From Octopus vulgaris (Eukaryota), in the NCBI GenBank assembly GCA_951406725.2, contig OX597815.1, positions 100,750,001-100,814,000 on the forward strand: 64,000 nt of DNA, written 5' to 3'. A program made the position numbers and the translations under genes. The notes beneath the pieces were generated by a model, which was not told where the DNA came from, did no database searches, and saw only the letters and a program-made list of their open reading frames with translations. Shown here piece by piece: positions 1 to 57,984 of this stretch. The stretch's first letter is position 1. Every line of letters starts with the position of its first letter.

Positions 1-339
1 CCCTGTCTCATTGTATCATTGCATCTGCCTAGCATTTTGCCACCATCTCTATCCTGCTGTTTCCTTCTCTCTCTCTCTCTCCTTCTCCTGTACTTCCCTC
101 AGGTTGGGTAACCACGTATCTCCTTTGTGGCAGTGTACCTGTTTCCACCTTCATTCCTGATTTCTCTCTCTCTCTCTCTCTTGCTTTCTCCCTCTCTCTG
201 GCCAGGTAACTTTGTACCTAATCTGCAGCAAGACGCCTGTTTCTGTCTCTCTGCCTCACTATAACCTTTTGTTATCCAGCACAAGATCACCTCCTCCATT
301 GCCCTCTTCCTTCTCAAAAGAGTTTTCTTTTGTCTTGCA

Positions 340-652
340 CTTGGTGACCCTGTCAGTGCAGGTGCCACTCAAAAGCACTTTGTCTACACTGTAAAGTGGT
401 TGGTGTTTGGAAAGGCATCCAGCTGTAAAATCCTTGCCAAAACTGACCTTACTTGTGCTTGTGCTACGTAAAAAGCACTAAATCCACTCCGCCAAGTGGT
501 TGGTGTTAGGAAGGGTACCCAGCTGTAAAAATCCTGCCAAAACAGTTACAGAAGTCTAGTGCAAAATTCTGTCTGGCCAGCTCTTATCAAACTGTTCCAT
601 CTAAGCTGGGAGGGAAGGTGGATGTTAAACGATGATGATGATGATGATGATA
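340..652 (+). mobile_element. RTE 3' terminal fragment with (GAT)n tail
   Basis: ggttggtgttaggaaggg..ccagctgtaaaa motif present twice, ending in ttaaacgatgatgatg. Confidence 0.75.
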
Positions 653-2762: not shown

Positions 2763-3492
2763 TCACCCAGGGAGACCTGGGATGAGGTGCTGAAGCATGA
2801 CCTTCAAACATTGGGCCTCACCGAGGCAATGACTAGTGACCGGGACCTTTGAAGATATGCTGTGCTTGAGAAGATTCGGCAAGCTCAAGTGAGACCATAA
2901 CCTTGTGGCCTATGTCAGGGGTGTAACCAGCCCACTTATGCATACCTTTCCTTCATTGGACACTAAACTCTGCTTGCGAAGACCTGTTGAGGCAAGTGAA
3001 ATCAAATAAAAAAATTGAAACTGAAATCAAATTCGATGAGTGGCATTCGTGCTAGTGGAGTGCTAAGAGTACCATACGAGCATGATCATTGCCAGAGCAA
3101 CAAGCTGGCTGCCATGCCGGTGGCATGTAAAAATCACCATTTGTATGTGATCATTACCTGCGCGCCTTACTGGCACCTGTGCTGGTAGCACATGAAAAAA
3201 TATTCGAGCGAGGTCATTACCAGTGTCGCTGGACTGGCTCCTGTGCAGGTGGCACATAAAAAGCACCATTTGAGCATGGCTGTTGCCATTACCACTTGAT
3301 TGGCCCTCGTGCTGGTGGCACGTAAAAGCACCCACTACACTCTCAGAGTGGTTGGCGTTAGGAAGGGCATCCAGCTGTAGAAACTCTGCCAAATCAGATT
3401 GGAATCTGGTGCAGCCATCTGGTTCACCAGACCTCAGTCGAGTCGTCCAACCTATGCTAGCATGGAAAGCGGACGTTAAATGATGATGATGA
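2763..3492 (+). mobile_element. 5'-truncated RTE copy (ORF end, 3' UTR with divergent modules, (ATG)n tail)
   Basis: ETWDEVLKHDLQTLGL, then a UTR homologous to 27783-28826. Confidence 0.9.
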
Positions 3493-4387: not shown

Positions 4388-6202
4388 CAAGGGTTGGACA
4401 AAATAATAGAAACACCTAGCATCATAGCATCATAATTTTGAAATATCTATAAAACCATCAAAATCTTGTTTATTTTTATGTTTTTTGATTTGTTATTAGT
4501 GTTGCTTTAATATGTTTTGCTAAAATTGCTGTTTCTTTTCAGATATCATCAGAAAAAGGTAATTAAAATTCATTAAAATTAAAATTCATTAAAATCTATC
4601 GGATTTTCAAAGAGGTCAAATTGTTGGTGCTCGTATGGCAGGTGCTAGCATAATGAAAACAGCTGAAATGTTTGGTGTATCAAGAAGTACTGTCTCGAAA
4701 GTAATGACAGCCTTTGAGAAAGAGGGTAAAACCTCCTCATTGAAACTAAACTTTGGAAAAAACCTAAAACTTTCAGATAGGGATTGTCAGACTCTTATGC
4801 AAATTGTTAGAAATGATCACAAAAGTACAGCTCCCAAAATTACTGCAGAGCATAATGACCACCCCAAGAACTCAGTTGCCACAAAAACTGTTTACTGGGA
4901 GCTGCACAAAGCTGGATTTCACAGGAGGGCTGCAATCAGAAAACCACTTCTTTCAAAAATAAACGTTGCAAAGCATTTAGAGTGAAGTAAAAACCTACAG
5001 AATTGGTCCTTAGAGCAGTAGAAGAATGTTATTTTCTTGGATGAGTCATCCTTTACCTTATTTCCAACCACCAGCCAAGTGGAGAGAGCCAAAAGAAGCA
5101 TTTGACCTAGACTGCCTTCTTCCAACTGTTAAACATGGAGGAGGATCTGTGATGATCGGAGGAGGGGGCTATATCTTGGAAATTCGCCAGCCCAATGGTT
5201 TCCCTTTATGGCAGAATTAATAGTCAAGACTATTTAAGCATTTTATCTGATCAAATTCATCCTATGGTTGCGGAACTGTTTCCGGAGGAAAAGGCAATTT
5301 TTCAGGATGATAATGCACCAATTCACACAGCTAAAGTTTTTACTGAATGGCACGAGGAACATTCTATTGAAGTTGAACATCTTATCTGGCCACCACAGAC
5401 CCCAGATCTCAATATTATTGAACATTTATGGTGGATTTTAGGAAAACAAGTTAGGAGTTGATATCCTCCAATCAGAAAACCACTTCTTTCAAAAATAAAC
5501 ATTGCAAAGCATTTAGAGTGGAGTAAAAACCTACAGAATTGGTCCTTAGAACAGTGGAAGAATGTTAGTTTCTTGGATGCGTCATCCTTTACCTTATTTC
5601 CAACCACCAGCCAAGTATCCATGTGGAGAGAGCCAAAAGATGCATTTGACCTAGACTGCCTTCTTCCAACTGTTAAACATGGAAGAGGATCTGTAATGAT
5701 CGGGGGGGGGCTATATCTTGGAAATCCGCCAGCCCAATGGCTTTCCTTCATGGCAGAATTAATAGTCAAGACTATTTAAGCATTTTATCAGATCAAATTC
5801 ATCCTATGGTTGCAGAAATGTTTCCGGAGGAAAAGGCAATCTTTCAGGATGATAATGCACCAATTCACACAGCTAAAGTTTTTACTGAATGGCACGAGGA
5901 GCATTCTATTGAAGTTGAACATCTTATCTGGCCACCACAGACCCCAGATCTCAATATTATTGAACATTTATGGTACATTTTAGGAAAACAAGTAAGGAGT
6001 CGATATCCTCCACCATCATCACTACAAGAACTGGGGACTGTTTTAGCTGAAGAATGGACAAAAATTCCTTTGGAAACAATTCAAACTTCGTACAGGTCCC
6101 TACCTCACAGAATTCAAGCTGCAATTATTACCAAAGGCGGTCCTACCCCATATTAAAATGTTTGAAATTTTAAGGTGTTTCCATTATTTTATCCAACCCC
6201 TG
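4388..6202 (+). mobile_element. Tc1-like DNA transposon, DD36E type, decayed, with ~535-bp internal tandem duplication
   Basis: ~30-bp TIRs (caagggttggacaaaataatagaaacacct / aggtgtttccattattttatccaacccctg) with TA on both sides. HTH region, FLDESSF, VKHGGGSVM, FQDDNAPIH, PDLNIIEHLW. Confidence 0.92.
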
Positions 6203-7469: not shown

Positions 7470-9300
7470 GTAGATAGCCCTGCTTGGCCTGTAGAAAAGG
7501 TGTAGGTAGGAACTTCATAAGATGTACCTGGTGTAAGCTATGGACATATAAGAGGTGCAGCAATATTAGAGGAAGATTAACAGGAAAGATAGTTTTCATG
7601 TGTGGAAGGTGCACAGGTACAATAACCACCAAAAATGTACAGAAAATACATTCCGTCACATACCAGGGAGGAAAACTACAAGTAGTTGATAGCTACTGTT
7701 ACCTAGGTGACCAAGTTAGTAGCAGGGGTGGATGCTCTGAGAGTATAGCTACTAGAATAAGAACAGGCTGGGCAAAGTTCAGAGAGCTTCTACCTCTGTT
7801 GGTAACAAAAGGCTTCTTCCTCAGGGTGAAAGGCAAATTGTATGATGCCTGTGTGTGAACAGCCATGCTACACAGAAATGAAACTTGGGCTGCGACTGCT
7901 GAGAACATACGTAGTCTTGTAAGAAATGAAGCTAGTATGCTCCACTAGATGTGTAATGTCAGTGTGCATGCATGATAAAGTGTGAAGATCCTGATAGAAA
8001 AGTTCGACATAAAAAGTATCAGACGTGGTGTGTAAGGGAGATGACTGCACTGGTATGGCCATGTGATGCATATGGACGAGGACAGATGTGTGAAGAGGTG
8101 CCACACTCTAACAGTGGAGGGGACCTGTGGAAGAAGTAGACCCAGAAAGACCTGGGATGAGGTGGTGAAATACGATCTTTGAATGTTGGGTCACACAGAA
8201 GCAATGACAAGCAACCGAGACAGTTGTAAATATACTGTGGTTGAGAAGGCTTATCAAGCCAAATGAGATCATAGTCATGGCTGATGTCAGTGTTACCTGA
8301 CCAGCACGTATGCTAGTGGCACATAATAAAGCACCATTCGAGCATGGCCAATGCCAGGGCTGCCTAACTGGCAGAACTACTTAATGCTGATGATCTTGCT
8401 CTTATTGTAGAATCTGTTGTAGAATTGGAGAAGAAATTCTAGTTATGGAAGAAAAACATGAAATCAAATGGCTTTAAAGTTAACCTAGCAAAGAACAAAG
8501 TTGTTGTTAGCAAGAAAGAAGGTAAGACTCTCTTTCTGTCAGGTAAATGGCCCTGCTCAGTATGTAGGAAAGGTGTTGGAAGTAATACCATTCACTGTAC
8601 CCAGTGTAAGCTATGGACACATAAGAGGTGCAGTGGAATCACAGGTAGATTAACAGATAAAGTCGCCTTTGTATGTAGCAGATGTGCAGGAACTATAAGC
8701 ATTAAGGGTACACAGGACTTAGATTCTCTCAAATGCCCAGGATGCTCTCTTGAGGTTGTTGATAGTTTCTGTTACCGAGGTGACCAAATTAGCAATGGTG
8801 GAGGATGCTCTGAAAGTATTGTTTCTAGAATAAGAATAAGGTGGAGGAAGTTCAGGGAGCTGTTATCTCTGTTGGCAACAAAAGTACTCTCTCTCAGAGT
8901 GAAAGGCAGACTGCACGATGCTTGTGTATGAACTGCTATGCTCCATGGTAGCGAGATATGGGCTCTGAATGCTGAAGACATGCATTGGCTAGAAAGAAAT
9001 GAAGGCTGTATGTGCAGCATCAGTGTGTATGTATAACAAAGTGCAAATGTATTGACAAGAAAAGTTGGGCATAAGGTGTCAAATGCAGCATGCAAGAGAG
9101 AAGGCTATGTTGGTTTGGACATGTGATGTGTATGAATGAAGACAACTGTCTGATCATCCATGGAAGTGGGAGACCTAGGAAGACATGGGATGAAGTGGTA
9201 AGGGCTGATCTCAAGTTGTTGGGCCTCACAGAGGAATTGATAATGGACTGAGATGTCTGGCAATACAAAGTTCTTTAGAAGACCTGCCCACACCAGCAAA
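7470..9300 (+). mobile_element. Two adjacent truncated RTE copies (about 7470-8372 and 8373-9300), both retaining the PHD insert
   Basis: CTWCKLWTYKRC...FMCGRC and WPCSVCRKG...CTQCKLWTHKRC...FVCSRC, plus KFRELL and GRLHDACV. Confidence 0.9.
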
Positions 9301-12439: not shown

Positions 12440-13275
12440 AATTCTGCTAAGGAGAGAATGCATGAAAAGTGTGATAGATAGAATAAAAGTAGGACAGGGG
12501 GAATTCAGACAGTTGTTACCTCTGCTGGCCACAAAAGGTTTCTCTCTCTGAGTGAAAGGAAGATTGTATGATGCATGTATTTGGACAGCAATTTGACATG
12601 GTAGTGAGACATGGCCCATGAATGCAGAGGACAAGTGAAGGTTAGAAAGGAATGAGGCTAGTATTTTCCACTGGATGTGTAATGTAAGTGTACATGTTTA
12701 AAAAAGTACAAGTGTTCTGGGAGAGAAGTTAGGCATAAGAAGAATTAGTTGCTGTGTGCAAGAGAGAAGACTGCACTGGTTTGGTCATGTGATACAGATG
12801 GATGACAACTGCTCCATGAAGAAGTGCTGATCTCTCAAAGTAGATGGAATATGTGGAAGTGGGAAACCCAGGTAAATATGGGACAAAGTACTGAAGAATG
12901 ATCTCAGGACACTAAACCTTTCAGGTGAGATGACAAAGGACATGCTTGGTGCCTTGCTGTACTCAAGAAGACCCATATTCTGCAGCAGAAGTGTTAAGGC
13001 CAGTTCCTCTGGTGGCAAGAAGCACTTGTGGAGGCATCACGTAAAAGTGCTTGTGTAGCATCATGTAAAAGCATCTGTGTGAGGCTGTGTAAAAGTGCCT
13101 GTGCAATGCCACATAAAAGCACCTAGCACACTCTGTAAAGAGGCCGGTGATAGGAAGGACATCCAGCTGTAGAAACCATGTCAAATCAGATTGAAGTCTG
13201 ATGCAGCTTTCCAGCTTGCCAGCTCTGGTCAAACTATGCCAACAGGGACAACAGATGTTAAATGATGATGATGAT
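12440..13275 (+). mobile_element. Truncated old RTE copy with 3' UTR and (ATG)n tail
   Basis: FRQLLPLL..KG and GRLYDAC motifs, followed by the family 3' UTR. Confidence 0.85.
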
Positions 13276-18772: not shown

Positions 18773-18822
18773 GAACAACAACAACAACGACAGCAGCAGC
18801 AGCAACAACAACAACAACAACA

Positions 18823-18854
<32 letters not shown>

Positions 18855-18910
18855 AGCAACAACAACAACAGCAGCAGCAGCAGCAAGAAGAAGAAGAAGA
18901 AGAAGAAGAG
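18773..18910. repeat. Compound (CAA/CAG)n(GAA)n microsatellite
   Basis: Read directly; it is the expanded tail of the interspersed repeat upstream. Confidence 0.95.
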
Positions 18911-26969: not shown

Positions 26970-27781
26970 TATATATTTCTACCTTTAGGTTGTAAAATTG
27001 CGAATAAGCCACCCATATTATTTATGTATATGTATGTACATACATATGTATGTATATGTGTGTGTGTGTATATATATTATCATCTTCATCATCAGTTTAA
27101 CATTCACTTTTTTCATGCTTGCATGGGTTGGATGGTGTTTATTGAAGCAGATTTTCTATGGCCAGATGTCCTTTTTTGTTGCCAACACCTGTTTCCAAAT
27201 AAAGTAATATTTCTGTGAGACATGTTCTCATAGAATATTGTAAATGAATAACACTGCTTGTATGACAGTGACAACCATTTTACAACCATTATGCAATATC
27301 AAGACAAGGAGACAACAAACAAACAAACACATGCACATGATGGGTTTCTTTCAGTATCTATCTGCCAAATCCACCCACAAGGCTTTGGTAGGCCTGGGGC
27401 TATAGGAGATGACATTTGCCCAAGGTTCCAGATAGTATGATTGTATCCAGAACCTTGTGACTGGGAAGCAGTACAAAATGCCATGTGATAAACATCTAGA
27501 GTTCTCTGTAAAATGGATGGCATTTGGAAGGGCATCCAACTGTAAAAAACCATGCCAGGTAGACCTTGCTGGTGTTAGTGCCATGTAAAAAGTACCCAGT
27601 CCACTCTGTAAAGTAGACAGCGAGGCTTGGTGCAGTCTTCTGGTTTACTAGCTCCTGTCAAACTATCGAACCCATGTTTGCATGGAAAATGGATGCTAAA
27701 TGATGATGATGATGATATGTGTGTGTGTGTATTTATATATACATATTTATATTATGTATGTATATATATATATATATATAT

Positions 27782-27813
<32 letters not shown>

Positions 27814-27967
27814 TTAACGTCCGCTTTCCATGCTAGCATGGGTTGGACGGTTCAACTGGTGTCTGGGGAGCCCGAAGGCTGCACCAGGCCAGTCAGATCT
27901 GGCAGTGTTTCTACAGCTGGATGCCCTTCCTAACGCCAACCACTCCGAGAGTGTAGTGGGTGATTTT

Positions 27968-28670
27968 ATGTGCCACCGACACAGGTGCCAGACGAGGCTG
28001 GCGAACGGCCACGCTCGGATGGTGTTTTTATGTGCCACCGACACAGGTGCCAGACAAGGCTGGCAGACGACCACGCTCGGATGGTGTTTTTATGTGCCAC
28101 CGACACAGGTGCCAGACGAGGCTGGCGAACGGCCACGCTCGGATGGTGTTTTATGTGCCACCGACACAGGTGCCAGACAAGGCTAGCAGACGACCACGCT
28201 CGGATGGTGTTTTTATGTGCCACCGACACAGGTGCCAGACGAGGCTGGCGAACGGCCACGCTCGGATGGTGTTTTTATGTGCCACCGACACAGGTGCCAG
28301 ACAAGGCTAGCAGACGACCACGCTCGGATGGTGTTTTTATGTGCCACCGACACAGGTGCCAGACAAGGCTAGCAGCCGACTACGCTCGGATGGTGTTTTT
28401 TATGTGCCACCGACACAGGTGCCAGACGAGGCTGGCGAGCGGCCACGCTCAGATGGTGTTTTTATGTGCCACCGACACAGGTGCCAGACAAGGCTAGCAG
28501 ACGACCACGCTCGGATGGTGTTTTTTATGTGCCACCGACACAGGAGCCAGATTAGGCTGGCGATCGGCCACGATTGGATGGTGATTGTTACGTGCCCACA
28601 GCATGGAGGCCAGTCGGTGCGGTACTGGCTACGGCCACGTTCGGATGGTATTCTTGTGTGCCACCGGCAC
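27968..28670 (-). repeat. Tandem array of ~62-bp units in the RTE 3' UTR (9 near-identical units of two alternating variants plus about 3 degenerate units)
   Basis: Unit starts (atgtgccaccgac) at 27968, 28030, 28092, 28153, 28215, 28277, 28339, 28402, 28464 and 28527; spacing 61-63 bp. Confidence 0.95.
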
Positions 28671-28826
28671 TGGTACCACAAAGATACAAATTCCATTGAT
28701 GTTCATCTATTTTGATTTTGTTTGATTTTCACTTGCCTCAACAGGTCTTCACAAGTGTCACAAGAAGGAAGGTATGCACAGGTGGACTGACTACGTCCTA
28801 GGTAGGGGCCACGGGTTATGGCCTGA

Positions 28827-31800
28827 CTAGTCTTGCCGGGTCTTCTCACACACAGCATACTTCCATAGGTCTCGGTCTCTAGTCATTTCCTTGGTGAGAC
28901 CTAAAGTTCGTAGGTCGTGCTTCACCACATCATCCCAGGTTTTCCTGGGTCTACCTCTTCCACAGGTTCCCTCAACTGCTAGGGTGTAGCACTTTTGCAC
29001 ACAACTATCTTCAGCCATTCTCGTCATATGACCATACCAGCGCAGCCGTCTCTCTTGCACACCACAACTGACGCTTCTTAGGTTCAACTTTTCTCTCAAG
29101 GTACTTACACTCTGACGATTATGAACACTGACATTACACATCCATCGGAGCATACTGGCTTCATTTCTTGCGAGCTTACGCATATCCTCAGCAGTCACGG
29201 CCCATGTTTCACTACCATGTAGCATGGCTGTACGTACACATGCATCATAAAGTCTGCCTTTTACTCTGAGCGAGAGGCCTTTTGTCACCAGCAGGGGTAA
29301 GAGCTCCCTAAACTTTGCCCAGGCTATTCTTACTCTAGCAGTTACACTTTCAGCACACCCACCCCCGCTACTAACTTGGTCTCCTAGGTAGCGGAAGCTA
29401 TCAACTACTTCTAGTTTGTCTCCCTGGAATGTGGTAGAAGTTGGTCTCTGCACATTTCCAGTGTTTATTTCTCCTGAGCATCTGCCACATACGAAAACTA
29501 TCTTCCCAGTTAGCCTACCTTTGACATTGCTGCACCTCTTATGTGTCCATAGCTTACACTTGGTGCACCTTATAGAGTTTCTACCTATACCTTTTCTACA
29601 GATCGAGCAGGGCCATCTACCTGAAGTTGTTTGTGGTTGGTCCACCTTCCTACTTATTAGGACTTTGGTTTTGGCTATGTTGATTCTAAGGCCCTTCGAT
29701 TCTAATCCTTGTTTCCACACCTGAAACTTCTCCTCCAGTTCTGATAGTGACTCAGCAATTAGAGCAAGGTCATCAGCATATAGGAGCTCCCAGGGGCATC
29801 CTGTCTTAAATTCTTCCGTTATTGCCTGGAGGACTATGATAAATAGGAGGGGGCTGAGGACTGAACCTTGGTGGACCCCAACCTCTACCCGGAATTCTTC
29901 ACTGTACTCGTTGCCAACCCTCACTTTACTAGCTGCGTCTCTGTACATGGCTCGCACAGCTCTCACTAACCATTCATCTATTCCTAGTTTCCTCATTGAC
30001 AACCAGATAAGGGATCGGGGGACCCTGTCAAAGGCTTTCTCTAAGTCAACAAAAGCCAGGTACAAGGGCTTACCTTTGGCTAGGTATTTCTCCTGCAGCT
30101 GTCTTACCAGGAATATAGCATCAGTAGTACTTTTCCCTGGCACGAACCCAAACTGCATATCATCTAAGCTAACTCACTCTCTAATTAACTGGGCTATAAC
30201 CCTCTCCGTAACCTTCATTACCTGATCCAACAGCTTGATGCCCCTGTAGTTATTTGTATCTAGGGCATCGCCTTTACCTTTGTAGCAGTTGACTATTATG
30301 CTGCTACACCAGTCATTGGGTATGACTCCTTCGTGTATCACCTGGTTAACTATACGGGTGACTATGCTATAGCCGACACTACCAGATATTTTGAGCATCT
30401 CTGCAGTAATTCCTGATGGGCCTGGGGCTTTCCCTGTCTTCATGCTTCTAATTGCCTTAGCTACCACGGAACTATCAACTCGGATAGCTGGTCCCTCTGT
30501 TGGGTCAACATTCGGCAGACTCTCTTTATCCCATTCATTTTCCTCATTCAGCAACCTTTCATAGTGGCGTCTCCAAGCTTCTCTCTTTGCATCCTCATTT
30601 AGCGCAAGTGAACCATCCTCCATGCGAACACATTTCTCTCCTACCACATCACGATTCTCTCTCACACACTGTCTTGCAACACGAAATACCTCAAGTCTTT
30701 CATCCTCACGGCGCAGGACATTGGCAAATTTTCTTTTATCTGCTTCCCCTCTGGCTAGATAGACCTGTCTCCTAGCTTCCCTTCTGGCAGTCTGATACAC
30801 TTCCCTGCTACCACCGTTCTTCCAGGCCTTCCAAGCCTGTTTCTTTTGTCTAATAGCCCTGTCAACAATATTGTTCCACCACCACGTTATTTTGGGTCTT
30901 AAGGGGACTTTGCACCAGCTGCAGATCTGGTCAGCGGCTTTCAGCAGGTTGTCCCTCAGAAACGTCCAGTTGTCTTCTACCCCATGTGCAGCTATACCCC
31001 CTTCCACTTCGTCAAAGGCTTCAAGTAACATATCTCTGAATCTCTGTCCATTCGCAGGGTCTTTAAGCTTCCAGACCCTTCTTCTCCATGTTGGTCGTCT
31101 ACTAGTCGCCCTCTTAGTCCTGATCCTAAAGTCACTAACTACCAGTCTATGTTGTGGGGTGCATTCTTCGCCTGGGAAGGTTTTGGCATTTATAAGCAGC
31201 CATCTTTCCCTTTTTCTGGCAAGGATGTAGTCGATTTGGCTAGTATGCCGGCCCGATCGGTAGGTGACCAGGTGGCTTGTTGGTTTCCTGAAGTTAGTGT
31301 TGCAGATCATAAGACTATTCGCATCACAGAACTCCAGCAGCCTGGTTCCCTCCTCGTTGCGGGAACCATAACCGTAGCCACCATGTACGCCATGGAAGCC
31401 CCCAGCATGTCGTCCAACATGCCCATTGAAATCACCGGCCACAAAGAGAAGGTCCCTGTCGTTCGTCAATGAGGTGGTCTGCAGTAGGGTGTCATAGAAA
31501 CTGTCTTTCTGTCCATCGGGTAGCCCTGGCTGAGGGGCATAGGCCGATATAATGGTTGCTAATCTATTATGAAGCACTAATCTAATCTTAAGTATTCTGT
31601 CACATACTCTGATTACCTCAATTACTCTATCTATCCATTTCTCAGCGATAAGTATACCCACGCCACCAACCCCGTCAGTGTTCCCTGCCCAGAAAATCTT
31701 GTACCTGTGTTCCTTGCCTGTGAGGAACCTAGCAGATCCTCCTCTCCACCTTATTTCTTGCATACAACATACATCAACACGTCTCCGTTCAAGCATCTCG

Positions 31801-31952
31801 ACTATCTCGCCAGACCTACCTTTCAGTGTGCCAGCGTTGAGGGTGCCCACCCTGAGGGGGTGGAAGGTATTGACCCGAGAGGCCCAGGGACGGGGAGCAG
31901 TGGCGTCATGTACCTGAAAAGAAGAAGAAAACTCGCATTTGGCAGAATTCAT
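28827..31952 (-). pseudogene. RTE ORF: apurinic-type endonuclease + reverse transcriptase with inserted PHD finger; one in-frame TGA at 30174-30176
   Basis: APE motifs GTLNAGTL, CMQEIRW, SAYAPQ, GDFNGHVG, SQIDYIL, QHRLV. RT motifs NYRGIKLL, QFGF, FVDLEKAFDRV, GVHQGSVLSP, LYADDL, FRYLG. The track ORFs 30174..31958 and 28827..30158 are in the same frame (RE*VSLDDMQFGF). Confidence 0.95.
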
Positions 31953-32039
31953 AAGCAAAGCAATGAACTTAAGTTCAACCTGTTACACTGCACTATCATG
32001 TTTTTGCGCCGTATGGTCACCACCATATATAGAAGGGGT

Positions 32040-32225
32040 GGTATTGGTTTAAGGCCTTTAAGTGTTCATGGAAGAAAAGCAAAGGAAGGCAAGGTGAGAT
32101 AAGGACTTCCGGTACTGGTGGTGAGATAAGGACTTCCGGTACTGGTGGTGGGGGCGGGAGGGCGGGCGCACTGCGCACTGGGAGAAGACGAGATTTAGGC
32201 GGCAGTAAGAAAGGCAAGATTTGAG
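32040..32225 (-). promoter_or_regulatory. Putative internal Pol II promoter of the RTE
   Basis: Element sense strand has tgcgcagtgcgc (NRF1-like), two CCCGCCC GC boxes, a duplicated 27-bp unit carrying ACCGGAAGT (ETS) and CTTATCT (GATA), and a CCAAT box. Confidence 0.55.
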
Positions 32226-32254
32226 ATATATATATATATATATATATATACCAG

Positions 32255-39047: not shown

Positions 39048-40173
39048 AACCTTATTCGTTAAAAATCAGCTCCAGAAAGAAGGCTGTATTTAGAGTAGCT
39101 ATAATATTAAGTATTGCCCTAACATAACTGCATCTTTCAGGCTGGCACTAGTAAAAGCATGCATATATGCTTGTATGTATGCATGTTTGAATGTATGGAT
39201 GTATGTGCATGTGCACATCCACATATGCCCACACACATACCTCAGTTTTTGTCAACCAGATTTCATAAACAAGGTATTTTTTAACCCAAGAACAGCCAAA
39301 TTTCTGTGTAGTATGATTAAAGCTGAAATCATGTGGTTACAAAATGAATTTCTTAAGCATCAGTATCAACTGTATTTATCAACCTTTTACTGCTCTTTGT
39401 TCACCTCTCATCTCACCATCAGATTTTGCTTATTTCATTCATTTCTGCCAGCTTTTAAGATGTATTTTCCATTTCTATCTGATTGTTAAATAAGTATTTC
39501 TAAAGTAGTTAAAAGCATAATCTCTTAAAACTCTAATTTCTTATTCATGCTTCATGTTATACTCATTACTGTCTAGATCATTGTTGTATATGTGTTACAT
39601 TTGTATATGTGTCTACTTTACAAATAACTCAGCCATTACTTGCAAATAAATCTGGTAGCTTGTACCATTCTTTCTCTATTTGTTTTTAAGCTCCTGTGCA
39701 GTTATGAGCAGATAGACACCCTCTTGGCCTAGCAGAATATTGAGAATATAACAGTAGGAGGGAGAGAGGACTGCACTTGTAGCTGGGTGGTATTCTTTTC
39801 CAGCTGAATAGACTGGAACAACATGAAATAAAGTGCTTTGATAAGGGACACAGCATACTGAAAACACTCTCTAGAAATGCTTATGCTTAATGTCCACTTT
39901 CCATGCTGACATGGGTTGGATGGTTTGATGGGAGCTGGGAAGTCGGAGCACTGCACCTGGCTCCAGTCATCTGTTTTGGTATGGTTTCTATGGCTGGATG
40001 TCCTTCCTAATGCCAACCACTTTACAGAGAGTACTGGGTGCTTTTTTTGTGGCACCAGCATGAGTGCTATTTACATGACACTGGCATGGATGCTTTCTTT
40101 ATGTGGTGCCAGTACAGGTATTCTTTATAGGATGCCAGCATGGGTGTTTTTATGTGGCACCAGTACCTATAGA

Positions 40174-42249: not shown

Positions 42250-43515
42250 ACGAAAAAAGCACCCAGTACATTTCTGTAAAGTAGTTGGCATTAGAAAGAG
42301 TATCCAGCCATAGAAACCATGCCAAAGCTAATACACTGGAGCAAGACAAAGTCCTTCGACCTGTTGGATCCTCTCAAAGCTCCAACCCATACCAGCATGG
42401 AAAGCGGATGGCCTCTCGCTCAGAATAAAAGGTAGACTGTATGATGCATGTGTATGAACAGCCATACTACACGGCAGTGAAACATGGGCTGTGACTGCTG
42501 AGGACATGCATAAGCTCACAAGGAATGAAGCCAGTATGATCTGATGGATGTGTAATGTCAGTGTGCATACTCGACAGAGTGTAAGTACCTTGAGAGAAAA
42601 GTTGGACTTAAGAAGCATTAGATGTAGTGTGCAAGAGAAACAAGTGTGCTGGTATGGTCATGTGGTGAGAATGGATGAGGATAGCTGTGTGAAAAAGTGC
42701 CACACCCTAGCGGTTGAGGGAACCTGTGAAAGAGGTAGACCTAGGAAGACCTGGGATGAAGTGGTGAAGCACGACCTTCGAACATTAGGCCTCACCAAGG
42801 AAATGACTAGCGACCGAGACTTTTGGAAATATGCTGTGCATGAGAAGACCCGGCAAGCCAAATGAGACCATAACTTGTGGCCTATGCCAGGAGCGTAATC
42901 AGCCCGCTTATGCGTACCTTTTCCTTCTTTGGTCACTAAACTCTGCTTGCGAAGACCTGTTGAGGTAAGTGAAATCAAAATCAAAATCAATTCGATGACT
43001 GGCATCCGTGCTAGTGGGGTGCAAAGAGCACCATACAAGTGTGATTGTTGACAGAGTGGCTAAACAGCTTCCGTGCCAGTAGCACATAAAAGGGCACCAT
43101 TTGAGTATGATCGTTACCAGTGTCGCCTTACTGGCACTTGTGCCTGTGCTAGTAGGGTGCCAAGAGCACCATCTGAGCGTGATTGTTGCCAGAGCAGCCA
43201 ACTGGCTTCTGTACCTGTGGCATGTAAAAGGGCACCATTCGAGTGTGATCGTTACCAACGTTGCTTCACTGGCACATGTAAAAAGATTTGAGCGAGGTCA
43301 TTGCCAGTACCGCCTGACTGGCCCTCGTGCCGGTGCCATGTAAAAAGCACTCACTACACTTTCGGAGTGGTTGGCGTTAGGAAGGGCATCCAGCTGTAGA
43401 AACTCTGCCAGATCAAAATTGGAGCCTGGTGCAGCCATCTGGTTCGCCAGCCCTCAGTCAAAATCGTCCAACCCATGCTAGCATGGAAAGCGAACGTTAA
43501 ACGATGATGATGATG
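42250..43515 (+). mobile_element. RTE tail fragment followed by a 5'-truncated RTE copy with about 5 divergent UTR modules
   Basis: MCNVSVHTRQSVSTLREKL...RGRPRKTWDEVVKHDL, the family UTR and the (GAT)n tail. Confidence 0.9.
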
Positions 43516-52309: not shown

Positions 52310-54901
52310 CAGTAGTTTTATTTTTATAGTGTGCTTTCACTTCACTACCGAGCGCAGCTCTGTGTGCCTTGGGTATGTGCTGTGATTTGTTGTGATGCTC
52401 TGATGGTTATTGTATGGAAAGTGTTCTGCGTAGGATGTGTGCAGTGCCTAGTAGTGCAATTTTCTGTATGTTATATGTGTTTGTAAGTCCTGGTGTTTTT
52501 GTTATGTATTTGTCTGAATATTTTTTTATCATGCCTAATGCACCTACTATGATAGGAATTGTTTCTGTTTTTAGATTCCACATTCTGGTTACCTCTATTT
52601 CCAGGTCTTTGTATTTTGAAAGTTTCTCCATTTCTTTTAGAGACACGTTGTCATCTGCCGGTATTGATACATCAATTAGAAAGCATTTTTTTCTTCATGA
52701 TCCCTGACAACTATATCTGGTCTGTTGGCCTTAATTTCTCTATCTGTGTGTATCGGCATATCCCAGAGTATGGTTGCTTTCTCGTTTTCTGTGACCTTTT
52801 CTGGTGTGTGCCTATACCATCTTTTTTCTGTTGTTATTCCATAATGTTGGCATAGCTTCCAGTGTATGTAGGTTCCAACTCTGTCATGTCTGTGAATATA
52901 ATCCTTCTTAGCCAGGACTGGGCAGCCAGAGATAATATGATTTATTGTTTCTTGTCCATCTCCACATATTCTGCAGTTACTAGTTATATTTCTTTTCATT
53001 ACATGTTTTTGGTAATTTCTGGTGGGGAGGCTTTGATCTTGTGCTGCAATTAAAAATCCCTCTGTCTCTGCTTTGAGTCCTGAGCTTCTCAACCATTGCT
53101 GGGATTTTTCTTTGTCTATTTCTTTTGCGTTTATTTTAGTCCAGTATTTACCATGAAGGGGCTTTTCTTGCCATCGTTTTATCATGGTTCGTTGCTGTTC
53201 TATTTTTAGTTTGGATTTCATTTGTTTTATAGTTTTTGTTGTTTCTTCATCTTCTTCTTCTTTTTCATATTTATTAGGTGGTATGATTTCTTGTTTGTAT
53301 TTGTCAGCTTCCTTAAATACTGAGAACAGTTTTTTGTTTTGCTCGTGTTTTGCCGCTATTTGTATCAGTTTTCCTTCCTTCTGAAGTAGATATTTTTGCA
53401 ATCCTATGGTGGTTATTTTATAGTAGTTTTCCAGCTGTATAAGGCCTCTACCACCTTCTATACGTTGTATATATAGTCTTTCTATGTCAGATTTTGGGTG
53501 ATGCATCTTAGATCCTGTCATTATTTTTCTTGTTTTCCTATCTATTTTGGTCAGTTCATTTAGTGTCCAGTTAAGGATATTGTAGCTGTAACTTATAACT
53601 GGGACAGCTAAAGTGTTAATACCTATTATCTTGTTTTTAGCATTGAGCTCTGTTTTTAGTATTGATCTAACTCGTCTATAATATTATCTTTTTATTTTCT
53701 CTTTCATTTGTGTGTGTTGTGTCTTATCTAGTTCATGGATTCCTAAGTATTTGTAAGTTTGGCTTTGGTCTAATTCTTTTATTTCATTGGTTTTTATCTA
53801 GTGTGATGTTACTACTCTTAACTAGTTTTCCTCTTTTCAGGGTTACTTTGGCACATTTTTCTAATCCAAATTTCATATCTATTTCTTTGGTAAATCCATG
53901 AACTGTCTTTAATAGTGTTTCCAGCTGTTTGTCATTTGCAGCGTATAGTTTTAGGTCATCCTAAAAAGGTGGCTGATCGTTTTGCCATAACATTTATATC
54001 CGCATCCAGTTCTATTTAGCATATCAGATAGAGGTGACAGTGCCAAGCAGAAAAGGAGTGGAGAGAGCGTGTCTCCCTGGAATATTCCTCTTCTAATGGG
54101 GATGGCTTTGGTTTTCATGAGTCCCTCTTTTGTTTGGAGCTGTAGCACTGTTTGCCATTTATTCATAGAGTGCCCTATAAATTTTATAATTGTTGGTGCT
54201 ACTTTGTTAATGGCTAGTGTTTCGAGGATCCATGTGTGGGGGATGCTATCTAACGCCTTTTTGTAGTCGATCCAGGCCATACTGAGACCTTTCTTCTTTC
54301 TGTGGCTGTCTTCAGTTATGGCTTTATTAATCATTAGTTGATCTTTACAGCCATATGAGCCTTTGCGGCATCCTTTCTGCTCTTCTGGAAACAGGTTGTT
54401 TACGTCCAGGTGCTTGTTCAACCTTTGCGATATCACTGCAGTAAATGCCTTGTACATTGTAGGGAGGCAGGTTATTGGTCTGTAGTTTTCTGGTTTTGCT
54501 GTCTCATTTGATTTGGGAATTAAGATGGTTTTCCCCTTCGTGAGCCATTCAGGCATTGTCTCTGGCTCTGTCTTCAGCCAGCTTTTCGTGCATTCCTGAT
54601 AGATATTTCAACCAGAAGTTGGGGATCTTGTCATGCCCAGGTGCCTTCCAGTTGCTTAGTCTTTGCAGTGCCTGGGTGACCTCTTCAGTTGTTATGGGGG
54701 TCCAAAGTTGCTCAGATGCTGAGTTTGTTGTTTTGATACTCCTTTTTTTTGGTTGTTCGTTCGCTGACCATATTTCTCTCCAGAATTCTTCCACTTCTGC
54801 TGTTGGTGCTGCAGTGATTTCTATTTTATTTTTGCCAAGTTCTTGGTAGAACTTTTTGGGGTTGGAGTTGAACTTTTTGTTTTGTTCAAAGAAGCGCTGG
54901 C

Positions 54902-57396: not shown

Positions 57397-57984
57397 TTAT
57401 CGCTCTGAGTCATTTGGGGCTGAGCTTTTCTCTTTAGTCTTTTTCACTCCATCGATAGTATCAAATTCCTCTGCTTTCTCCTTAATTTCTCTACGCTCTT
57501 TATATTCAACATGTTTTTCCCTGTTGGTTTCAGAATGAAACCATTTATTTAACAGAATGTCATGCACCGATGGTCGGCTCATATAGGCGTATGTGAATAA
57601 ACGCTTGAGCAGGTGTCGACAATCCCGGCTGATCTTATGGGTCTTACCCCATGACAAATTAAGCCGTTTTTGGTCTTCAATTATTCGTTTTATTCCTCTA
57701 CTTTCATCAAACGGCATCCGGCTGGTACCCATTATATAAAGTATTACGCCGATTGCCCATGTATCCGCTTTACGTGGATCATATGGTTCGCCGCGAAGTA
57801 TCTCTGGCGAAGCATAGGATTTAGTCCCGCAGTATGTTTGACTTAATTCACATTTTTTATTACTTGTTACGAAACCGAAATCAGTGATTTTGATGTTGTA
57901 GTTTTGATCTAAAAGTAGGTTCTCAAGCTTCAAATCACGGTGAGTAATATTTTGGCTGTGTAAGTAATCAACAGCTTTACACAC
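57397..57984 (-). CDS. Terminal exon of a testis-specific Ser/Thr kinase-like (TSSK family, CAMK group) gene; N-lobe exon(s) not found in window
   Basis: HRDLKLENLLL, DFG, LSQTYCGTKSYASPEILRGEPYDP, DTWAIGVILYIM, MPFD. Preceded by acceptor ttatttttctattatacatag (AG at 57986-57985, phase 0). AATAAA on minus at 57181-57186. Confidence 0.88.
   Translation of the reverse strand: MCKAVDYLHSQNITHRDLKLENLLLDQNYNIKITDFGFVTSNKKCELSQTYCGTKSYASPEILRGEPYDPRKADTWAIGVILYIMGTSRMPFDESRGIKRIIEDQKRLNLSWGKTHKISRDCRHLLKRLFTYAYMSRPSVHDILLNKWFHSETNREKHVEYKERREIKEKAEEFDTIDGVKKTKEKSSAPNDSER

Follow-up and report, generated by a model that had tools for sequence, protein, structure and literature searches.

A tandem array with a conserved 26-nt core in the 3' UTR of an Octopus vulgaris LINE

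The window analysed herein, a 64-kb stretch of Octopus vulgaris DNA, contains a LINE copy whose 3' UTR carries a tandem array of variable copy number, built around a 26-nt core that stays constant in seven LINE lineages. The feature is real, but its support as a structured array is weaker than a sequence-only reading of the same DNA had held. In the explanation that we favour, and to which we give slightly less than an even chance, the array is a minisatellite amplified by slippage, its conserved core likely forms a pseudoknot acting on the LINE mRNA, and the extra copies are redundant.

The array belongs to a single LINE copy, the main parts of which are:

27782..32225, minus strand: full-length young LINE copy, RTE-like, with (TA)n flanks at both ends
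28827..31952, minus strand: single EN-RT ORF with one in-frame stop (30174-30176)
28727..28755, minus strand: decayed duplicate of the ORF end within the 3' UTR, lacking the core (identified by eye)
27782..27813, minus strand: (ATG)n tail, from a tandem-repeat call

The ORF spans ~1041 codons and is followed by a 3' UTR of 1046 nt. Pfam searches of the ORF recovered an APE endonuclease (PF03372, E 1.5e-8) and a reverse transcriptase (RT; PF00078, E 1.9e-27), as well as a weak PHD-like finger downstream of the RT (PF00628) that fell below the cut-off. Endonuclease and RT thus share one ORF, the 3' end is a short tandem repeat, (ATG)n, and 5'-truncated copies occur, as in the RTE clade, to which the element presumably belongs, judging by its motifs. 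Judging by its sequences the family of the window copy is young; among the best 40 matches to the last 146 nt, 35 are identical. Neither AATAAA nor ATTAAA occurs in the 1046-nt 3' UTR, and LINE RNA without a poly(A) signal of its own may still be polyadenylated from flanking DNA. The window copy and many of its sisters are hosted by (TA)n or (TG)n microsatellites (here 27728-27783 and 32226-32250). The LINE 5' UTR contains a perfect 27-bp tandem duplication at 32093-32150, and its comparison against Rfam with E up to 10 returned no ribozyme match, only low-complexity hits.

The array itself begins ~155 nt past the LINE stop codon, lies ~145 nt away from the LINE 3' end, and was resolved as follows:

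27959..28671, minus strand: tandem array of 12 cores, consisting of nine near-identical 62-bp units (types a, b and c) and three diverged 5' units
28647..28671, minus strand: first core, bare, with the outer pair of stem 1 broken
28580..28605, minus strand: second core, with GTGG in place of GGTG and one mismatch in stem 1
27987..28002, minus strand: hairpin 1 of the last unit, GCCAG-loop-CTGGC, which competes with an upstream UGGY/RCCA pairing
27959..27983, minus strand: last core, with a stem 1 of 5 bp, a loop 1 of 1 nt, a stem 2 of 4 bp and an A-rich loop 3; candidate H-type pseudoknot

The regular part (27959-28596) was called with a period of 62, 10.3 copies, 89% matches and a score of 990, and two degenerate 5' units were added to this call to give the 12 cores. 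The sequence-only reading had placed a tandem array in the 3' UTR of a LINE and laid out its units on the sense strand of the element, here the minus strand, and both points hold as described. It had also seen that hairpin 1 keeps its stem and frees its loop, and this agrees with our comparison of lineages, between which loops of 6-11 nt differ and GCCAG/CTGGC stays. The complementarity of GGUG to CACC is likewise as it had noted.

Across copies, the array is hypervariable. The number of cores ranged from 5 to 25 in 32 complete young sister copies, a range that is not unbiased, as many of these were found via similarity to the window copy. In young copies the order of the units is polar, with the diverged units in front and types b and c nearer the 5' and the 3' end, respectively, and the A-runs within the units vary in length from 4 to 12. 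Private variants recur in two or three units in 11 of 46 young copies, a block of five units is duplicated at one locus (L019), and many upstream cores are broken. Given the polar unit order, the variable number, the A-run length variation and the private variants that recur in several units, the array behaves like a minisatellite. Of 1036 junctions, 12 have lost stem 1 cleanly between two TGGCAC repeats; 10 of these deletions affect the last unit, and they come from several lineages. This means either that the RT skips a folded hairpin or that the last core is dispensable while others remain. The repeat is also common: 120 core-bearing LINE tails were found in the 1.06 Mb of the genome that was sampled, a sample that favours dense regions. 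Tail and last unit were present in contigs from four sequencing runs of four organisms, in which the contigs mix all copies. A metagenome scan for the core gave 0 matches.

From 390 loci we resolved seven lineages, namely the young A, the old D and E, and B, C, F and G, together with one SINE. In every one of the seven the 26-nt core lies directly 5' of the terminal domain, and what differs by lineage is the segment that is repeated, i.e., ~26 nt of bare core in D (55 units in 20 copies), 62-66 nt in A, B, C, F and G, and ~100 nt in E, where the repeat takes in the terminal block and the ORF end was found upstream in 4 of 20 copies. The window contains further copies that illustrate this:

335..640, plus strand: lineage E copy with a ~100-bp duplication of core and conserved block; A-U replaces C-G in the first core
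3045..3332, plus strand: lineage B copy, 5 cores
13020..13125, plus strand: old-lineage copy with core-only units of 24-26 bp
40040..40166, minus strand: lineage D copy with core-only units of 26 bp
43008..43350, plus strand: lineage C copy

The variation in unit number that had been described therefore stands, with 12 cores here, 5 in the lineage B copy and 6 in the lineage C copy. The reduced versions reported near 13020 and 40045 are present as the bare core of an older lineage, with periods of 24 and 26 instead of 21. Units are thus lineage-specific and their number variable, and the varying core number, along with core-bearing segments that were re-amplified across lineages, supports the earlier description of the element as amplifiable. 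Pieces of the UTR without a core also duplicate, namely the decayed ORF end and, as a 19-20-bp array, the terminal hairpin in locus L322 (~8180-8550). In locus L199 (~1250-1500) we observed a 24-bp array derived from the core.

Elsewhere in the window, fragments of a different LINE with an RT and a C-terminal zinc-finger region lie at 52676-54607 (minus strand), and a protein-kinase-like open frame with HRDLK and DFG motifs, which may be a retrocopy or an exon of a host gene, at 57397-57984 (minus strand). A long (CAA/CAG)n followed by (AAG)n at 18774-18909 is a possible polyglutamine exon, and the plus strand at 5677-6156 carries what we take, judging by its motifs, to be a Tc1/mariner-like transposase fragment.

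The core is constrained at the level of its sequence. Among 21 unit types, each in at least three copies and exclusive of units too degenerate for the profile, the 28 paired positions had 8 non-CpG changes and the 22 loop or linker positions had 25 (P = 2e-4), so that stems show ~4 times fewer changes than loops; the 13 positions before hairpin 1 (17 changes) were kept out of both classes. This upholds the earlier claim of selection insofar as it concerns the sequence of the 26-nt core and of the hairpin-1 arms, and does not extend it to copy number. On a seven-lineage tree of the last 180 nt, non-CpG changes per site were fewest in the GGAAGGGCATCC block (0.05), followed by the terminal stem-loop (0.20), the core stems (0.22) and the core loops (0.25), and most numerous in the spacer (0.53). 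By these figures the core is constrained relative to the spacer (P = 0.04), but less so than the block that follows it, and in these last cores loop conservation equals that of the stems (0.25 vs 0.22). In favour of a pseudoknot, all nine pairs are intact in the last cores of 6 of 7 lineages versus 7 of 16 other cores, a hand-corrected count from which two false pattern rows and duplicates caused by A-runs were removed, in which two over-restored CpGs were undone, and to which the last core of lineage C was added from a separate alignment.

Whether the core folds is a separate matter. Its layout satisfies the geometry of an H-type pseudoknot, with two interleaved stems and feasible loops (loop 1 of 1-2 nt, loop 3 of 5-8 nt). 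The stems are of 5 + 4 bp in the young lineages and 4 + 5 bp in the old D and E, a single C/G difference placing one pair in stem 2 of the old lineages and in stem 1 of the young ones, with nine pairs in either case. The loop-1 base varies freely (C, U or A), which is easier to reconcile with a pseudoknot than with a 6-bp hairpin. In lineage E the outer stem-1 pair has become A-U in place of C-G, a fixed double transversion (all 20 copies carry A on one side and all 20 carry T on the other), although this compensation is a single event and the copies were found by a query carrying the change; in A and F, first cores have the same outer A without compensation. At stem 2, a co-change of G-C to U.U and the register shift are the nearest to compensation among the lineages.

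Covariation, in contrast, is scarce. The second stem of the unit had been read as covarying (catgc/gcatg, tgtgc/gcaca, cgtgc/gcacg, tgtgt/gcaca), yet all of these differ at a CpG facing a CpG, and in 221 single genomic units the arms of the stem decayed independently (Fisher P 0.37 and 0.72). The GGUG/CACC stem had no compensatory change among 22 units (0 of 4 pairs). On these 22 aligned units the covariation score of the structure was equalled by 41 of 500 shuffles, with both double-change pairs being CpG, while that of a rival fold (UGGY/RCCA plus a 6-bp hairpin) was equalled by 10 of 500, which makes it as good as or better than the pseudoknot; the RNAalifold covariation term was -0.06. Nor did we find the wobble pairs to work on the sense RNA only, as had been proposed, since by eye three non-CpG changes give G.U on the sense strand and three give A.C, the latter being G.U on the antisense strand. 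Beyond CpG decay, then, the 62-66-nt units contain no covariation, an outcome that the sequence-only reading had itself named as refuting it, and one true compensation and the register shift are confined to older lineages. The H-type pseudoknot of the sequence-only reading is plausible, can be drawn and gains from these two changes, but not from the units in which it was proposed.

Energetics and chance expectations were similarly equivocal. The pseudoknot layout arises in 8-9% of 3000 shuffled units and a perfect 5-bp hairpin in 41-44%. Requiring an A-rich loop 3, a condition added post hoc, lowers the former to 0.2% of 3000 shuffles, and with this loop the layout is confined to the sense strand. 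The folding of single units is not better than that of shuffles (z -1.17 and +0.81), and nested models of the whole UTR, which cannot represent pseudoknots or co-transcriptional folding, gave mean probabilities of 0.41 for hairpin 1 and 0.02 for stem 1. The estimated energy of the pseudoknot (-5.7 to -9.5) is barely ahead of that of a plain hairpin (-5.3). From the sequences, the chances that the core is knotted appear about even, and those that its stem 1 forms somewhat higher.

These observations bear directly on a reading without any functional fold, in which the array is a minisatellite, the linear motifs GGCAC, the A-run and CACC are conserved because a protein binds them on RNA or DNA or are slow-changing sequence beside the recognition domain, and the complementarity is incidental. 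It would account for the lack of covariation and the frequency of the layout among shuffles, as well as for the imbalance of changes between the arms, of which the 3' arms are nearly invariant (1 change) and the 5' arms carry 7, most of them uncompensated (P = 0.035). The comparison of lineages A and C cuts both ways, as 3 of the 18 paired sites of the core differ between them, compared with 22 of 97 fourfold sites, and yet all three of these stem changes preserve pairing. Linear motifs do less well with the free loop-1 base, the varying loop lengths, the register shift and the double transversion, and we regard this reading as unlikely, albeit a serious contender.

The strongest conservation in the tail lies downstream of the array, in two features:

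27901..27943, minus strand: most conserved block of the tail, with the GGAAGGGCATCC hairpin, an A-rich linker and TGCC; second candidate pseudoknot, common to LINE and SINE
27818..27849, minus strand: 3'-terminal stem-loop, likely the RT recognition signal from its fold z and conservation

The last 89 nt of the LINE fold with a z of -2.92 and are the sole part that beats shuffles. Within the block, a GGA/UCC hairpin with the loop AGGGCA is followed by an A-rich linker of 9 nt, whose last bases vary, and by an invariant UGCC; this UGCC is complementary to GGCA, as seen in all seven lineages and the SINE, and the block shows no covariation, both sides being invariant. As a candidate for the RT signal, the block would be preferable to the array. 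An assignment of the block to the Vhc domain of V-SINEs was rejected, as its core occurs 0 times in four supplement files of PMC4758252 that hold Vhc consensuses.

Block, 3' stem-loop and (ATG)n tail are common to LINE and SINE, but the core is absent from the latter: only 1 of 50 SINE-type tails has a core-like motif and 49 have none. By the logic with which SINEs borrow LINE tails, as far as it is set out in the available text of PMC3747384, the core is therefore not the signal that the RT needs, and the earlier proposal of RT recruitment is weakened. That proposal can be put more specifically, with each core docking the element's own protein and more copies giving more cis-preference, comparable to the single pseudoknot-hinge-stem of A-clade R2. 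The R2 precedent (PMC11601368, consulted in part) speaks for it, as do the re-amplification of core-bearing segments in every lineage and the fact that the longest arrays are found in the youngest family. However, the R2 element sits within the last 65 nt whereas the array starts ~145 nt from the end, and among first-look candidates the lineages with short arrays had at least 2007 and at least 2729 members, against at least 369 for the lineage with long arrays. Together with the SINE tails, this leaves docking by the cores quite unlikely.

The 5' ends of truncated copies provide a further line of evidence. We kept 181 ends from 355 copies; 113 were excluded because the query demanded upstream sequence, and the remainder because the flank was still element-like or lay beyond the locus edge. 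The 85 ends within arrays are spread over the unit, with at most 7 of 85 at any single position. This distribution, with the existence of full-length copies and a lack of Rfam matches (none in the 64-kb window at gathering score, and low-complexity hits only for the array at E up to 10), speaks against the catalysis that had been proposed. RTE elements are known to bear ribozymes, although at their 5' ends (PMC5786205, in the portion available), and a cut in each unit would sever the 3' end from the ORF, but copies long enough to span the whole array are common; we thus find it scarcely credible that the unit is a self-cleaving ribozyme. Hammerhead or HDV-like and tRNA-like readings were also rejected by eye, as the motifs they need are absent.

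Stalling of a 5'-to-3' exonuclease at each core, in the manner of an xrRNA, would shield 3' fragments that are later retroposed, and could explain why stem 1 receives 12 of the 85 ends on its first three bases, where 4.1 would be expected (P = 0.04 after correction for the scan), and why ends also gather near the 5' edge of the terminal block. The excess, however, derives from the discovery set (10 of 66 ends) and was not reproduced in the held-out ends (2 of 19, P = 0.23). The site at the stem-1 edge starts with TGTG and the targets are (TA)n/(TG)n, so microhomology could also produce it, and Rfam offers no match; we consider exonuclease stalling decidedly improbable. In unselected copies, 1 of 95 5' ends lay 45-94 nt from the 3' end and 14 lay at 95-146 nt, several of the latter at the first base of the block's stem, and the gap may mark a protein footprint or a minimal template.

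In the slippage-amplified minisatellite that we favour, a UTR prone to duplication would have had the segment bearing the core locally duplicated again and again, yielding an array. RT slippage is known for RTE tails (PMC2887409, as far as the consulted part of that paper describes it). New units could stem from such slippage or arise at the DNA level, and the repeated CpG-type variants suggest that DNA events occur at least sometimes. The core, likely folded as a compact H-type pseudoknot, would not be the signal required by the RT and would act instead on the LINE's own mRNA, which has no poly(A) signal of its own, probably by affecting its stability or its translation. We infer such an mRNA-level job from a module that is LINE-specific and lies upstream of the recognition domain, in a UTR without a poly(A) signal. 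Extra cores would be redundant, decaying from the 5' side, and the copy number would presumably drift.

Few studies, to our knowledge, have addressed how RTE elements with a single ORF and no poly(A) tail protect and translate their RNA, and how they select it. The present family offers a natural series for this, in which one 26-nt core recurs 2 to 25 times, in both broken and intact form, next to a core-free SINE, so that fold, function and dose can be put to the test. If the array is a minisatellite only, it still accounts for a very common repeat of the genome and a source of new satellites. Our literature search, with Repbase and most subscription papers outside its scope, came across neither this array nor any row of pseudoknots in the UTR of a LINE; the portions consulted of PMC4758252, PMC5786205 and PMC6887750 gave no match. 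The 2026 repeat annotation of O. vulgaris lists 13 recently active RTE families, and no UTR structure is mentioned in the available part of it (PMC13282606).

Several known systems resemble parts of what we describe. One of these is RTE-2_OV of O. vulgaris, for which Petrosino et al. noted, without further description, a repeat that takes up most of the 3' UTR (PMC9115989, consulted in part). Like the window LINE it combines a single-ORF EN-RT, a zinc finger and a repeat in the 3' UTR, but it is described with 1109 aa, a 3' UTR of ~600 nt and a “microsatellite” from the ORF end, as opposed to the ~155 nt that precede the array here. Tandem repeats are known in the 3' UTRs of other retrotransposons, with Ogre LTR elements and PisTR-A as examples, and the 3' regions of HeT-A, CR1 and L1 are sources of satellites (PMC9659126, from the excerpts available). 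The array shares with the Ogre/PisTR-A repeats its place in a 3' UTR, lineage-specific units and variable number, and differs in belonging to a non-LTR element and in having one conserved core per unit with stem-like conservation, no RNA structure being given for those repeats in the same excerpts. The A-clade R2 3' UTR pseudoknot matters for mobility and was rescued by compensatory mutation (PMC11601368, in part); unlike the array, it is single-copy, confined to the last 65 nt and divergent in sequence with a common fold, and the terminal block at 27901-27943 corresponds to it more closely than the array does.

The geometry of the core recalls the compact luteoviral pseudoknots of BWYV and ScYLV, which have a 5-bp stem 1, a very short loop 1, a stem 2 of 3-4 bp and an A-rich loop 3. 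The viral knots are named as frameshift pseudoknots in PMC5382211 (consulted in part), and the position of the core after the stop codon implies no frameshift role for it. A bolder conjecture is that an expandable row of pseudoknots takes the place of a poly(A) tail or recruits multiple molecules of the element's own protein, with the unit number tuning activity, in convergence with the upstream pseudoknot domain (UPD) of tobamoviruses, and with the second, more conserved pseudoknot downstream serving as the RT signal common to the SINE; we hold this combination to be rather doubtful. The tobamovirus UPD is a row of pseudoknots. It is reported to stimulate translation in a manner for which a poly(A) tail can substitute (PMC5382211, in the part consulted), and the likeness lies in a 3' UTR region of (here candidate) pseudoknots that precedes the terminal structure recognised by the replicase, in an RNA lacking a poly(A) signal, as the array precedes the terminal structure of the LINE. 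The UPD is plant-viral, its fold and function are proven there, and the comparison implies no homology.
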